Virus record (IMG/VR): IMGVR_UViG_3300010399_000003
Location: 48,853 to 112,852 of that record
DNA: 64,000 nt
Reading direction: 5' to 3' (one strand)
From: a virus
Shown here: positions 22,663 to 26,231 of the stretch, piece by piece
How positions within the stretch are numbered: position 1 is the first letter of the stretch
Layout of the letters: the number at the start of each line of letters is the position of its first letter
Notes under the pieces: model-generated
What the model saw: only the letters and a program-made list of their open reading frames with translations
Told to the model about the DNA's origin: nothing
Databases searched by the model: none
Made by a program: the position numbers and the translations under genes

Positions 22663-24147
22663 CTATTTGCTCTTCATGCCGATGTGCTGCTTGAAAAAAT
22701 CCCTCGCTTTAGGTGGCAAGACCCGACCACCACCTGAAACATAGACGCTGAATGCTTCCGCAAAGCCTTCCACGGCGTTCTTGTCGGAATACTGGCTCAC
22801 CAGTTTTCCAAACAATGGCGAATACACCTTCTCACGCCATTCTTTACGATCATCTTCAGTCAATCGCTTGAACCACACGTGATGACCGATCTCATGCTTC
22901 GCTTGGTCTAGTGGTCCGGAACCAACAACGACTCGACGTTCGCCAGGTTCAACATTATTGCGTTTTTCCCGTTCTGTCGGACCGTAGGCAACCGCGATAC
23001 GATCCGTATTGGGGTTGTATTCACCAGCAGCGTTCTTCCCACTTTCACTGGAGTATTTCTGGTTATACAAGACCATCCCATAAATCGAGATATCTTGTAA
23101 TCCACTGAATTGCGACAAGTCGTCTAACAAATTACCAACTTGTTCCGCGAATTCCGCTGGTTCAGTCGCACCTGCTGGAAAATCAATCGCTGTATGCTGT
23201 CGCAAGCGCTGAACAGTTCCGGATGTTCCAGTTTGCCCTTCTTTGGTCCACTTGCCAAATTCATCACGCTCTTGTGAAGGATCATAATGAGTAGTTGCTA
23301 AGGCTCGTGGAATTTCCAAGACCTCCGTGCACCGACACGATGGATGCAACGGTGGACCAAATCCGATTTCACCACCATACGCACCAGTCAGTGATGCAGA
23401 TTTTCCATTCAGCACCTGACAGCGTTCACACGCGCCATACGTGGCAAGCCAACGACGCTTCTCTTTCCCAGTCAGTAAGCCTTCGTCGTACGCTTGGCTC
23501 CACGCAAGGCGTTGCCCCGCGTTCGCGGCGGACATGATTTCAGTTCGGGCGATCATGTCGGCACGAATTGGATCACCAACCGCATCAAGGATTTTTCCAA
23601 AGGCTTTGCCGAGATCGCCACTCTCTAGTGCAGTCGACACCGCCTCGACAATCTGCTTGCGGCTTGTGGCAGACAGACCGTCAGCGAGTTCCAACGCATG
23701 TTTTTCGGCCCACTCAACAGCGTCGGGATTAGATATGTCAAATGCAATCTTTGTTAACTTCTTCCGTTTCGCAGCCGCACGGAATTCCTCCGCCATACGC
23801 GGTTCAAGCTTGTCGAATGCTGCATCCCCTCCTGCTGCCACGATCGAACGAATCACAGGCGGCGCAACTTTCAAAATCGCCTTCCGAATTGCGGTTGGCG
23901 CGCCGTCCATGGCGACAAGTGCAGCACGTTCGGTCCTTGCAGAAAGCAGTGCAGTCTTTTTAGCTGCCTTCCTACCTTGTGCAAAGGCAAACATGATCAC
24001 TGTTAACATCGCTTTGTAGAATTTATCGGCAGCAACATGGACTTCGGTTTCCGGACTCATTTCCAATGTCTCGAGTTCCTCAATCTCGATATCATCCGGT
24101 GACCATACATAGCGGGTGGATGGATTCATGGGATTGTTTCCACCCAT
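22663..24147 (-). CDS. MuF/SPP1 gp7-like minor head protein with C-terminal zincin (HEIGH) domain
   Basis: RTEIMSAANAG...HPSCRCT MuF signature. C-terminal AKHEIGHHVW...EGFAEAF HExxH...E motif. Confidence 0.65.
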   Translation of the reverse strand: MGGNNPMNPSTRYVWSPDDIEIEELETLEMSPETEVHVAADKFYKAMLTVIMFAFAQGRKAAKKTALLSARTERAALVAMDGAPTAIRKAILKVAPPVIRSIVAAGGDAAFDKLEPRMAEEFRAAAKRKKLTKIAFDISNPDAVEWAEKHALELADGLSATSRKQIVEAVSTALESGDLGKAFGKILDAVGDPIRADMIARTEIMSAANAGQRLAWSQAYDEGLLTGKEKRRWLATYGACERCQVLNGKSASLTGAYGGEIGFGPPLHPSCRCTEVLEIPRALATTHYDPSQERDEFGKWTKEGQTGTSGTVQRLRQHTAIDFPAGATEPAEFAEQVGNLLDDLSQFSGLQDISIYGMVLYNQKYSSESGKNAAGEYNPNTDRIAVAYGPTEREKRNNVEPGERRVVVGSGPLDQAKHEIGHHVWFKRLTEDDRKEWREKVYSPLFGKLVSQYSDKNAVEGFAEAFSVYVSGGGRVLPPKARDFFKQHIGMKSK

Positions 24148-26231
24148 AAATCACCACGAGAATCTTTATTCATCACGCGAAAACGCGTGCCTCGATTCAA
24201 CACGTATTCTTTCTGATATGCATATTGATGAGTAGGTCCCAACACTTCATTTACAGCGACGACTTTCGTCTTAGGACGTGCGCGAATCGTAATGCGTTGA
24301 ACTGCGTGTCCGCGCGCGGGAAGATCATCCAAACTTAGATCTTCCATGATTTGCTTGAGCGCACCGTAGCTCGCTGAAGTAGAAACAAAGCCATGATCTG
24401 TGAAAACATCACCGACTTTCAAATCCAACACGTGATCTGTCACACGATACAGCGTCATTTCCCGAGACAACGGACTCATCAGCGAATCCATGCGTTGAAC
24501 TCGCTCATCCTTCAGAATTCCTTGGTCGTGAGCACGCAATTTATCATTCGGACCGCCATACATAAACGATCCTTCAGTGACATAACTTGATAGAATCTCA
24601 ACAGCATCGGCAAGATCAATCTCGCCGACCGCAGAACTACCTGAACCACCAACCTTTCCCGGCCGTCCGGCGTGACCATGAAAGCCGCTGCCAGCCCCGC
24701 CAAGGGTCTCCAGTCTATCATCCTCATCGAGATCGTCAACAAACACTATCGCATAAGCAATCTGCTCGTCCGACATTTCCAAAGTCTTCGGACGTTTTGG
24801 CATGACTGACTTGCCAGTCGGTGTAACGATATCGATAATCCACTCAGGAGGAATTGTCTCCTCACGATAGAATGCATTGAAAGACGTTTCATCATCCTGC
24901 TTAAAACTGCTTACGTGCGCTTTCGGGATAGCCAATTTCACAATGACTGGCTTCCCCCTTGCATCCGCTGCACGAGTCTTAGCATACATCTCCGCTTCTT
25001 TTAATGACGTCGTTACCCATACATCGCTCCACGACGTCAAACCAGTCTTCAAGATGCTCGCAACATTCTTCGCGACTGTCCCATGAAACGCAGCGGTAGA
25101 TCCGCCACGCTTTCCAGGTCTTCCAGCATGGCCGTGATGTCCAGAACCACGACCACCTAGATGCCGCATCCGCTCTTTGAGTGGCCGACCGCCCCATCCG
25201 ATATCGATCAGGGTATCGTCGGTGGCTCCATTGACTTTGATCTTCTCGTATAAAGCGTGCAGCGAGTCACTCTGTTCAATTGGATCATGTGTCGGCACGA
25301 AAGTCACTTTAACTTTCATGCGCTGACTAGTTCCAGGAGTCTGCCCACCAAAATACTCGGATTCTTCACGCTGGATAAATCCGCGCACCTTAAACTGATC
25401 AAACTCGCGACCAATTACTCCGAGTTTATCAGCGACATCCGCATGCGTTTCTTCATTCAGTGACGGATTATCAGGACTGACTTCTGAACCAAGCAGAATT
25501 CGTTGATCTTTCGGATTAAACAAGAAATGCCGATTGATGATCGATTGGAAATCAAAAAATCCCTTCGGTTCATTTGCCTCTGCTGGCAGCGGATCGAATT
25601 TCTGTAATCCAGTCGAGCCAGATGTATCACTCGTGACGCCGATGCGATTTCCTTGGTCGTCCAACCACGGCGTGCCCGGCTTGACTGGACCCTTCACTGA
25701 ATCGACATAGTCACGAAACAGATCACCGGATGAACCACCGACCTTGCCAGGACGACCTTTGTGACCATGATGACCAGATCCCTTGCCTCCTGCTAAGCGA
25801 AGTGCTAACAGATATCGAGCGACTCGCTCAACATCAAATTCCTTCCGACGTTTCCGTTTCCGTCGCATCGGCTGTAGTAACTCAGACCGAAGCGGCAATG
25901 GACCCGATGCAGCCCGATAGGTCTTCGCAATTTCGTCCGCGGTTTGCGTGCTTGTGTAGTCTAATTCGGTCACCGCATCGCCTGCGGAATGCGTGCAGTA
26001 CAATACGGTCACCGAATCGCCAGTCGTTTCTAAATCAGAATGATGATTCGCGGTGTTTTCTGAGGCTTTCAGGCGAGCGATGAAAGCAGCAAGTTCGCGA
26101 CGATTTCCAAACGTGAAAGTCTTAATCAAGCCTTTCGGTGTGACGACCCAATCAGTCGCTGCTTCTAAACACTTCGCAATCCAGTGTTGACAATCAGGAC
26201 ACGTTTGCGTATCGTGAGCTGGCAGCATCAA
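24126..26231 (-). CDS. Capsid-cargo polyprotein: DCoH-like domain, unknown domain, H-G-T ADP-ribosyltransferase-like domain, R-S-E mono-ADP-ribosyltransferase; three linker motifs
   Basis: NHHSDLETTGDSVTVLYCTHSAGD (DCoH-like). AAFHGTVAKNVASILKTGL (H-G-T). LYRV...FVSTSAS...YQKEYV (R-S-E). Three copies of GGxGSGxHGHxGRPGK(V)GGS. Confidence 0.6.
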   Translation of the reverse strand: MMLPAHDTQTCPDCQHWIAKCLEAATDWVVTPKGLIKTFTFGNRRELAAFIARLKASENTANHHSDLETTGDSVTVLYCTHSAGDAVTELDYTSTQTADEIAKTYRAASGPLPLRSELLQPMRRKRKRRKEFDVERVARYLLALRLAGGKGSGHHGHKGRPGKVGGSSGDLFRDYVDSVKGPVKPGTPWLDDQGNRIGVTSDTSGSTGLQKFDPLPAEANEPKGFFDFQSIINRHFLFNPKDQRILLGSEVSPDNPSLNEETHADVADKLGVIGREFDQFKVRGFIQREESEYFGGQTPGTSQRMKVKVTFVPTHDPIEQSDSLHALYEKIKVNGATDDTLIDIGWGGRPLKERMRHLGGRGSGHHGHAGRPGKRGGSTAAFHGTVAKNVASILKTGLTSWSDVWVTTSLKEAEMYAKTRAADARGKPVIVKLAIPKAHVSSFKQDDETSFNAFYREETIPPEWIIDIVTPTGKSVMPKRPKTLEMSDEQIAYAIVFVDDLDEDDRLETLGGAGSGFHGHAGRPGKVGGSGSSAVGEIDLADAVEILSSYVTEGSFMYGGPNDKLRAHDQGILKDERVQRMDSLMSPLSREMTLYRVTDHVLDLKVGDVFTDHGFVSTSASYGALKQIMEDLSLDDLPARGHAVQRITIRARPKTKVVAVNEVLGPTHQYAYQKEYVLNRGTRFRVMNKDSRGDLWVETIP
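24645..24715 (-). repeat. Linker motif, copy 2 (GGAGSGFHGHAGRPGKVGGS)
   Basis: Checked by direct translation. Confidence 0.8.
25085..25155 (-). repeat. Linker motif, copy 3 (GGRGSGHHGHAGRPGKRGGS)
   Basis: Checked by direct translation. Confidence 0.8.
25731..25790 (-). repeat. Linker motif, copy 4 (GGKGSGHHGHKGRPGKVGGS)
   Basis: aa 148-167 of the 701-aa ORF. Preceded by the basic RRKRKRRK patch. Confidence 0.8.

Follow-up and report, generated by a model that had tools for sequence, protein, structure and literature searches.

The window analysed here, a 64,000-nucleotide stretch of the IMG/VR record IMGVR_UViG_3300010399_000003, appears to come from an uncultured tailed phage with a contig of at least 113 kb. 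On the minus strand, where all features described below lie, an ORF at 24126-26231 encodes 701 aa, as the first-pass annotation had reported, with TTG as the listed start codon, and every sequence string quoted in that annotation (NHHSDLETTGDSVTVLYCTHSAGD, AAFHGTVAKNVASILKTGL, LYRV, FVSTSAS and YQKEYV) was recovered in the translation. An ATG at 26228 follows as the second codon and overlaps with the stop codon of the upstream gene (TGATG). The public gene call begins at this ATG, which is likely the true start, giving a 700-aa product. Three 20-aa linkers at aa 148-167, 359-378 and 511-530 divide the protein into modules of aa 1-147, 168-358, 379-510 and 531-701. We found that the gene encodes a four-module 'polyvalent' protein, in which a DCoH-like and an unassigned domain are followed by one of Tpt1/DarT-like type and a VIP2/C3-type ADP-ribosyltransferase (ART).

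The gene order at the locus is portal fusion, 398-aa gene, 701-aa gene and MuF-zincin gene, with overlapping stop and start codons; the 701-aa gene is translationally coupled, with such overlaps on both of its sides. The terminase, portal, MuF and capsid genes around it all lie on the same strand. In the portal fusion (27449-31711), a portal protein is joined by way of three linkers to modules of Tpt1-like, 2H phosphoesterase and topoisomerase IB type, and the linker here joins effector modules directly to the portal. The 701-aa polypeptide itself carries no portal or MuF domain. The upstream 398-aa gene (26228-27424) contains two CP.C..W motifs, one linker and a ParB-like (DGHHR) module. The coupled downstream gene (22663-24147) encodes a MuF head protein with a C-terminal HEIGHH zincin of the MuF-C/MPTase type, the only recognisable peptidase signature in the window and a candidate processing peptidase. 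The protease/scaffold slot is occupied by a 789-aa protein (18767-21136) made of a DUF2213 module, one linker and a 502-aa module of unknown family; no relation of the DUF2213 module to S78 proteases was seen.

Module 1 has a core with the DCoH/pterin-4a-carbinolamine dehydratase fold (aa 18-100, 25932-26180), which bears out the DCoH-like assignment of the first-pass annotation. It scored 46.6 bits against PF01329 (PCD/DCoH), above the Pfam cutoff of 26, and matched a Thermus thermophilus DCoH-like protein (PDB 1USO) with E = 1.9e-8. The histidine triad is kept, with N-H63-H64-S and T-H80-S, both within NHHSDLETTGDSVTVLYCTHSAGD (aa 62-85), aligning with NHHP and THSAG of 1USO. Module 1 agrees with the PCD/DCoH family in fold-level membership and in the HH...H histidines, whereas it differs in being embedded in a phage cargo protein, with an N-terminal CxxC motif and a poly-basic tail. 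Orthology to 4a-hydroxytetrahydrobiopterin dehydratase was not indicated by the NCBIfam equivalog model (best score 34 bits, cutoff 80), and DCoH was absent among the 50,697 GenBank phage records searched. The basic patch RRKRKRRK had been placed after linker 1, but it lies at aa 123-130 (25842-25865), in the tail of module 1 and ahead of that linker. The N-terminal motif TCPDCQHWIAKC (aa 10-21, 26169-26204) is common to the N-termini of the 701-aa protein and the upstream 398-aa protein, the two N-terminal modules matching each other in phmmer with E = 2.3e-7, and a regex survey found the motif to be private to this phage. Module 2 (aa 168-358, 25158-25730) is an orphan with no family assigned: no homologues were found, a Pfam search gave no match, and its AF2 model had a pLDDT of 44.

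Module 4 (aa 531-701, 24129-24641) is firmly assigned, by sequence, as a VIP2/C3-type mono-ADP-ribosyltransferase with an R-S-[Q]xE active site. The motifs LYRV (aa 594-597), FVSTSAS (aa 615-621) and YQKEYV (aa 672-677) supply the residues R596, S617-T618-S619 and Q673-x-E675, and we found that L-Y-R596-V aligns with the YR of Vip2 and F-V-S617-T618-S619 with its GYMSTS. A search for relatives yielded 106. Among 92 of them, R596 is conserved in 91, S617 in 91, T618 in 89 and E675 in all 92, while position 673, a Q in this protein, is E in 46 and Q in 43. The family profile matched Vip2 with E = 3.6e-18, and further matches were Certhrax, C3, iota and CdtA; the YR/STS/ExE motifs line up in these alignments. 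The query alone stayed below the cutoff of PF03496 (ADPrib_exo_Tox; 20.8 versus 23.4 bits), and all 24 aligned relatives matched this model (best 6e-27). These results uphold, at the family level, the R-S-E triad that the first-pass annotation had recognised. Being catalytically intact by its residues, module 4 would modify a host protein using host NAD+. Among C3-like enzymes, a QxE active site is associated with modification of asparagine instead of arginine. Membership in the T4 Alt/ModA/ModB family was also considered, and no specific relationship was found: in a tblastn of module 4 against the 50,697 phage records only 8 Gordonia phage records were returned and T4-like phages were absent. 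The sole isolate-phage relatives are Gordonia VIP2-like toxins, at 27-29% identity, and the likeness to T4 Alt proposed from the first reading did not extend to a detectable specific similarity.

Module 3 (aa 379-510, 24702-25097) is probably a small ART-fold domain of the Tpt1/DarT/PARP clade, nearest Tpt1/DarT as judged from motifs and profiles. The families of this H-type ART clade considered were Tpt1/KptA (PF01885), DarT (PF14487) and PARP (PF00644). Its elements are H383-G-T within AAFHGTVAKNVASILKTGL (aa 380-398), VWVTTS (aa 404-409) and FYREETIPPEWI (aa 454-465). The H-x-T/S NAD-binding motif of strand 1 is present, as is the helix behind it with its G-L/I end (F-H383-G-T...ILKTGL), and H, T and I are the sole invariant columns of the seven-sequence module 3 family. 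In alignments with Tpt1 and DarT, H383-G-T and the IPPEW strand fall on the NAD-binding elements of these enzymes. The family profile matched Tpt1 (1.2e-4), DarT1 (1.4e-4) and PARP10 (0.18), with all Pfam and NCBIfam matches under the curated cutoffs. The motif part of the original PARP/Tpt1/DarT-type call stood, whereas Foldseek returned no significant match; overall, the domain calls of the first-pass annotation held for the most part. Compared with the RNA 2'-phosphotransferase Tpt1/KptA and the DNA ADP-ribosyltransferase DarT, it is only ~100-130 aa long and reaches no curated threshold. Because it starts at the HGT motif, it has no counterpart of the N-terminal lobe in which most of the Tpt1 catalytic tetrad (R-H-R-R) resides. 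Assignment to ART-PolyVal (PF18760) was rejected: the query gave no match, and a bona fide member, L168 (51.7 bits), scored 1.4 bits against the module 3 profile. Module 4 of the relative P0002 scored 23.3 bits against PF18760 (cutoff 31.2).

Module 3 may have nucleic-acid ends or bases as its targets, or it might only bind NAD+. It may be inactive or non-canonical. A conserved catalytic acid on strand 5 (H-Y-E) was not found in the module 3 family; the query has E457/E458, which stand opposite VFEK of DarT, in a column that is unconserved. We give serious weight, a little short of even, to the reading that module 3 is no enzyme and represents a degenerate ART-like or an unrelated small alpha/beta domain, which would assist the R-S-E ART next to it as an adaptor or NAD+ sensor. 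Module 4 would then be the sole enzyme of the pair, and the role of module 3 might be compared with that of the N-terminal ART-like domain, itself inactive, in VIP2 and iota toxins. Consistent with this, three independent proteins, namely the query, P0040 and P0121, have a module-3-like domain immediately ahead of an R-S-E ART, and the missing acid, the absent Tpt1 lobe and the negative Pfam and Foldseek results point the same way. However, the alignment of H383-G-T and IPPEW with NAD-binding elements and the query's own two glutamates speak for an active domain, and in the portal fusion, P0002 and P0013, among others, module-3-like domains have no R-S-E ART beside them, which argues against an adaptor.

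The linkers conform to the consensus GG.GSG..GH.GRPG..GGS, exactly 20 aa long, or more fully [KDR]-GG-x-GSG-[NH]-[FHW]-GH-x-GRPG-x-[VRI]-GGS. Those of the 701-aa protein are GGKGSGHHGHKGRPGKVGGS (linker 1, 25731-25790), GGRGSGHHGHAGRPGKRGGS (linker 2, 25098-25157) and GGAGSGFHGHAGRPGKVGGS (linker 3, 24642-24701). Six-frame translation of the window revealed eight copies of the core motif, all on the minus strand and all within long ORFs. These copies are 60-85% identical as protein and 50-82% as DNA, and the third-codon positions of identical linker residues match at only 36%, indicating that the linker is kept by selection on the peptide and does not reflect recent DNA duplication. Furthermore, we found the linker in at least 118 viral contig stretches and 46 genome stretches (mostly MAG), with fixed length and near-invariant residues across distant lineages; a literature search found no description of the 20-residue motif. 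A portal domain is followed directly by the linker in 29 of 54 portal-bearing loci, and the linker likewise follows Peptidase_S78 prohead proteases, 11 of 14 of these modules lying in linker-bearing frames. The linker accompanies MuF in other loci, an R-S-E ART module occurs in 21 of the 118 viral loci, and ART-rich neighbours are also seen in head-gene contexts. Half of the linker proteins surveyed (14/28) have a leader of 6-36 aa and then the linker at once, and complete proteins never end with a linker. This layout fits an arrangement of leader and processing site, and the linker is probably a processing or packaging signal.

The identities of modules 1 and 4, the linker with its distribution and the gene context are direct results of the analysis, whereas we infer packaging, cleavage, injection and all enzymatic activities of the 701-aa protein; the first three are plausible from context, namely the head operon, the linker joining effectors to the portal and the adjacent MuF-zincin gene. 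On balance we favour, with some reserve, a virion-cargo polyvalent protein that is packaged, cleaved at its linkers and injected, with effector modules. Its synthesis would be late and coincide with that of the portal and MuF head proteins, and it would then enter the procapsid and reach the next host cell with the DNA. Its four modules would fold independently, and the linker ahead of each later module would most likely be where a head-associated protease recognises or cuts the chain, cleavage freeing the modules as separate effectors.

Two other readings were weighed against this one. The protein could be packaged yet remain uncleaved and act intact as a polyvalent effector, the linker being a conserved docking or structural element that binds the portal, capsid interior or DNA, or a flexible joint for threading through the tail as beads on a string. 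Of 164 linker loci, only 17 contain a detectable zincin module, and among the 46 that span at least 10 kb the number is 6, so it is not demonstrably an obligate partner of the linker, and no single protease family is present with all linker loci; both observations suit an uncleaved protein. So does the invariant His and Arg in a Gly-rich stretch, which could bind metal or nucleic acid, and the N4 vRNAP, ArdC and TraC1 polyvalent proteins are transferred unprocessed (PMC5512222). Nevertheless, this reading appears unlikely: the linker often comes right behind the short N-terminal leader, a position that calls for no spacer between domains, it is found after portals and S78 prohead proteases, the classical places of maturation cleavage, and its fixed length and near-invariant residues suggest that an enzyme cleft reads the motif, beyond any flexibility that it may provide. 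The protein might instead be no virion component at all, with its place in the head operon reflecting co-regulation of a late intracellular enzyme set (like T4 ModA/ModB) or of toxin cargo directed at competitors, as in a MuF-type polymorphic toxin system. In its favour, portal, MuF and capsid-binding domains are all absent from the polypeptide, and MuF-associated toxin cassettes have been described in temperate phages (PMC5576092). We regard this as quite improbable, because the stop and start codons overlap with head genes on both sides, the identical linker connects the portal with other effectors, both within this operon and in many further phages, and ART-rich neighbours recur in head-gene contexts.

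More tentatively, and with the odds rather against it, the linker might be an undescribed, lineage-spanning cargo signal, a dedicated tag for processing and/or packaging that is recognised by a conserved part of the head such as a maturation protease, a MuF-C zincin or the portal. If so, this would be a plug-and-play system in which any effector module of ~200 aa preceded by the tag would enter capsids and be freed for injection, and it would account for the extreme module shuffling among otherwise unrelated uncultured phages of bacteria and possibly archaea. The stereotyped linker is a more useful lead than the protein itself. Were it a processing or packaging signal, a simple sequence rule would suffice to find the injected effector modules of metagenomic phages, many orphan domains among them, a portable tag would be available to load foreign proteins into phage capsids, and the cutting and loading of polyvalent proteins, long an unsettled matter, would become directly testable.

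T4 Alt is an ART that is packaged in the head, processed by gp21 and injected. The 701-aa protein resembles it in R-S-E chemistry and in its predicted late synthesis, packaging, processing and injection, and the short leader and presumed processing site in many linker proteins recall the T4 capsid-targeting sequence. It differs in having QxE rather than ExE, a multi-domain architecture, no recognisable T4-type prohead protease and no specific similarity detected. ARTs and 2H domains fused to MuF and portal proteins have been described (PMC9503650), including MuF-fused VIP2-type ARTs in the Microbacterium phages Percival, Goodman and Johann (PMC7302621). The likeness to these VIP2/Alt-family fusions lies in a predicted virion-borne R-S-E ART from the head module and in effectors fused to the portal in the operon, whereas here the ART is not fused to MuF but forms the final bead in a separate protein of four modules, and the fusions are made via a stereotyped motif. 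Given these reports, the first-pass framing of a novel multi-effector version of Alt was overstated, since such proteins are known as 'polyvalent proteins', for which zincin processing has also been proposed (Iyer, Burroughs, Anand, de Souza, Aravind 2017; PMC5512222); one of them has been detected in phi24B virions by mass spectrometry (10.64898/2026.04.10.717836).

The 701-aa protein is a member of this known class and no new concept. As in the published polyvalent proteins (PMC5512222), several biochemically unrelated domains share one polypeptide (here DCoH, the orphan module, the ART-like module and the R-S-E ART), the gene lies among late, head and packaging genes, and ART domains, the commonest enzymes of the class, are present. 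The same operon also holds ParB-like, 2H and MuF domains and a zincin metallopeptidase of the kind proposed as processor, the HEIGHH of the adjacent MuF gene rather than of the same polypeptide. DCoH is not mentioned in that paper, module 3 does not belong to the ART-PolyVal family, and its main text describes no linker or glycine-rich motif, whereas here one and the same 20-aa motif stands at every module boundary. Collectively, these comparisons make the protein a well-supported addition to the known virion-borne multi-effector class, with an unusual cargo set that combines a VIP2-type ART within a polyvalent protein, a DCoH domain lacking a GenBank phage counterpart and an orphan module.

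We found that the three linkers of the 701-aa protein are copies of one motif of exactly 20 residues, GG.GSG..GH.GRPG..GGS, which sets four modules (1-147, 168-358, 379-510 and 531-701). The ORF lies on the minus strand at 24126..26231, as the first-pass annotation had it, and all the motifs quoted there were present in the protein; the basic RRKRKRRK patch, which had been placed after linker 1 (aa 148-167), precedes it (aa 123-130). The ORF opens with TTG; its second codon, ATG at 26228, shares bases with the upstream gene's TGA stop (TGATG), and the public gene call for this contig (ENA ERZ27256670 k141_6328653, 112,870 bp) gives a 700-aa product from this ATG. 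The stop codon falls within ATGA, where an in-frame ATG serves the next gene, and the public call of that downstream gene begins there.

Eight copies of the linker occur in the window, every one on the minus strand and within a long ORF: three in a 1420-aa portal fusion, one in the 398-aa upstream gene, three in the 701-aa gene and one in a 789-aa gene. The third linker of the portal fusion is degenerate, with GRFHHVGGS in place of GRPG..GGS. Peptide identity among these copies was 60-85% versus a DNA identity of 50-82%, and only 36% of third codon positions agreed among identical linker residues. The conserved entity is thus the peptide, and on these DNA values the alternative that the linkers are DNA repeats or recombination substrates was rejected. 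Among the matches listed, the leading GG was 99-100% conserved though absent from the search pattern, and the free positions showed clear residue preferences. A double-glycine (C39) or LxGG-type cleavage motif ahead of the linker was also considered and set aside; the residue before the GG is L or M in the window and mostly K, D or R elsewhere. The linker strings had no match in the literature searched, nor is the motif covered by any Pfam or NCBIfam model.

A whole-protein search with the query returned 29 metagenomic proteins, of which 28 contained the linker by pattern. These proteins carry otherwise unrelated modules, and the scores came mostly from the linker and not from the domains. When the back-translated linker pattern was scanned in IMG/VR and about 185,000 species genomes, it was found in at least 118 viral stretches, with as many as nine copies in one locus, and in 46 genomic stretches, nearly all from MAGs. 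Many of the latter are Lachnospiraceae and Clostridia, together with other phyla and some archaeal bins. The archaeal matches lie on contigs binned as Methanotrichaceae, Methanomicrobiales, Bathyarchaeia and Methanomassiliicoccales MAGs (loci L128, L134, L143 and L148); either binning errors or genuine archaeal viruses with the system could explain them. In half of the linker proteins a leader of 6-36 aa comes first and a linker follows immediately, and the motif is never at the end of complete ones. The median module between linkers was about 220 aa among the matches listed.

To define companion families, all modules of the 164 listed linker loci were clustered with the linkers masked. Among these matches, a PF06381 portal was present in 54 of 164 loci, with a linker directly after it in 29 of the 54, and a terminase was present in 41; capsid and cement proteins also accompany the motif. 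R-S-E ADP-ribosyltransferases (ARTs) were found in 21 of the 118 viral loci listed. The neighbours of other linker proteins are likewise ART-rich: a DRAT-family ART (PF07357, L166 4057-5397) adjoins the related metagenomic protein P0002, and beside another, P0013, lies a 936-aa protein (L168 303-3113) that has two linkers, an ART-PolyVal domain and, at its C-terminus, a HELGH zincin.

In the window, the gene block from the terminase large subunit (34573..36183) to the major capsid protein (17208..18251), all on the minus strand, is a head-assembly operon. The portal fusion (27449..31711, minus strand) combines a PF06381 portal and its three linkers with a Tpt1-like module (aa 639-793), a 2H phosphoesterase (PF13563, 5.9e-10, with a weak Acb1 match) and a bacterial-type topoisomerase IB (PF01028, 3e-27). 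The adjacent Tpt1-like and 2H modules recall an RNA-repair pair, and the portal shares 34.5% identity with its counterpart in Halorubrum phage Hardycor1. The 398-aa gene (26228..27424, minus strand) encodes a linker and a module with DGHHR that matches phrog_2859 (3.4e-15) and, weakly, a ParB-like PHROG; this module is probably a DdrB-like ParB nuclease domain, as described in polyvalent proteins. The 398-aa protein has two copies of the motif TCP.C..W[IV] at its N-terminus and the 701-aa protein has one (26169..26204, minus strand); the motif is absent from 135 related proteins and the 164 linker loci among the matches listed. It could represent a zinc knuckle, or else a packaging signal specific to this phage. 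Next to the 701-aa gene is a MuF gene with a C-terminal HEIGHH zincin (22663..24147, minus strand). Between this gene and the 789-aa gene lies a 346-aa ORF (21622..22662, minus strand) with no Pfam, PHROG or NCBIfam match. Genes lying downstream of the structural block encode a B12-binding radical SAM enzyme (PF04055 3.7e-17, PF02310 1.7e-10; 6390..8039, minus strand) and a 'GT4-conflict' glycosyltransferase (PF20706 1.2e-7; 3239..4471, minus strand), which may form a DNA or virion modification module. At about 41000-42000 the GC skew sign and the coding strand both flip, genes to the left being on the minus strand and those to the right on the plus strand, and cumulative GC skew has its minimum near 42 kb; this points to divergent transcription units or to a switch related to replication.

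The 789-aa gene (18767..21136, minus strand) occupies the protease/scaffold slot. Its product joins a DUF2213 module, which scored 23.3 bits where the cutoff is 22, through a linker to a 502-aa module without a known family. The DUF2213 module contains W-H-D-C-W-E-K-V-K-A-K-G-H-D-D-S-S-A-A-A-I, resembling C...KGHD.ESAKKICGA found downstream of S78 proteases elsewhere. As a prohead protease this module was rejected, since hhalign against the S78 alignment gave a probability of 0.1%. No peptidase signature other than the MuF zincin was recognisable in the window; the idea that the linker always needs this partner was rejected, because a MuF-C type zincin was present in only 17 of 164 linker loci among the matches listed. 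Peptidase_S78 prohead proteases are also among the families accompanying the linker; 11 of their 14 modules lay in linker-bearing frames among the matches listed.

Module 4 is, by its sequence, a VIP2/C3-type R-S-E mono-ADP-ribosyltransferase of the QxE variety with a predicted intact active site, as first proposed. A full HMMER scan yielded 106 relatives. In 92 aligned regions R596 was conserved in 91, S617 in 91, T618 in 89 and E675 in all 92, while position 673 was E in 46 and Q in 43. A 24-member profile matched Vip2 (3.6e-18), Certhrax, C3larvin, Vis, CdtA, C3 and iota toxin, and these alignments keep the YR, STS and ExE motifs in register. PF03496 was found in 24 of 24 profile members, and the query alone scored 20.8 bits, just under the cutoff of 23.4.

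Module 3 had been read as an H-type (PARP/Tpt1/DarT) ART. On its own it had no match in a word-indexed homology search, and single-sequence PDB searches of modules 3 and 4 gave only noise, so profiles were needed for both. Iterative searches among related proteins assembled a family comprising module 4 of P0002, module 2 of P0013, two domains of P0121, P0040 and module 2 of the portal fusion, with the pattern YHGT..SI..GL ... v[FWY]vT ... PVIv.l.IP ... IPPEWI. A seven-sequence profile matched Tpt1/KptA (1.2e-4), DarT1 (1.4e-4) and, weakly, PARP10, and nothing above noise outside the ART superfamily. Pfam matches of module 3 and its relatives were all sub-threshold and all within one ART clade (PARP, Tpt1, DarT, DUF7002 and ART-PolyVal). 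Weighing against an ART fold, or limiting that claim, Foldseek searches of the model in the PDB and BFVD gave no significant match, no curated family threshold was reached, and the family does not conserve E457/E458, the query glutamates aligned with VFEK of DarT. Identification as ART-PolyVal was rejected because a bona fide domain of that family has only the YHGT turn in common with the profile. We therefore regard module 3 as a probable ART-fold domain, closest to Tpt1/DarT, whose catalytic competence is uncertain. In three independent proteins such a module stands immediately before an R-S-E ART.

The DCoH-like domain noticed at the outset was confirmed: module 1 scored 46.6 bits against PF01329 (pterin-4a-carbinolamine dehydratase/DCoH; cutoff 26), and among solved structures it is closest to the Thermus DCoH-like protein 1USO (E=1.9e-8), where NHH[P/S] and THSAG align. 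Its score was far below the NCBIfam equivalog cutoffs, so we regard it as a DCoH-fold domain, not a demonstrated enzyme orthologue. No DCoH relative was found in 50,697 GenBank phage records or in the 164 linker-bearing loci among the matches listed. Module 2 alone had no homologues in a word-indexed search and no family match in a Pfam scan, and its AF2 model without an alignment was unusable (pLDDT 44). A suspected resemblance to the recurrent linker-protein module W-L-x-P-d-G ... H ... G-f-v-R was rejected at a profile score of about 0 bits.

The best-supported reading of the sequence is that the query would be a virion-cargo polyvalent protein in which a motif recognized by a head-associated protease marks the module boundaries. 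The protein would be packaged together with the portal and MuF proteins, the protease would cleave at the linker, and the modules would be injected with the DNA, after which the R-S-[Q]xE ART would modify a host protein with NAD+. Virion-borne polyvalent proteins have an experimental precedent in phage phi24B, where mass spectrometry detected gp47 in virions (bioRxiv 10.64898/2026.04.10.717836). MuF-VIP2 fusions are known from Microbacterium phages (PMC7302621), and fusions of ARTs and 2H domains to MuF or the portal have been described more generally (PMC9503650). The related giant protein P0121 (2221 aa; aa 47-150, 543-642 and 2105-2204) has no detectable linker and contains a pair of domains like module 3, an R-S-E ART-like stretch in its interior and an R-S-E ART at its C-terminus, indicating that the same cargo domains also occur in linker-free polyvalent proteins.

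Polyvalent proteins are characterized by a set of ParB-like, 2H, ART, MuF and zincin domains (Iyer et al., PMC5512222), and the head operon in the window has the same set. Since the query shows the defining features of this class that could be tested here, it belongs to a known class and brings no new concept; the multi-effector reading is partly supported, but not as a novelty, polyvalent proteins having already been described (PMC5512222). We found no description of the 20-aa boundary motif, and its presence at every boundary makes the query a variant within the class. The linker, rather than the ARTs, is the part most worth following up. Compared with known polyvalent proteins, the query is distinguished by its DCoH domain, its orphan module 2 and the recurrence of one 20-aa motif at every module boundary.
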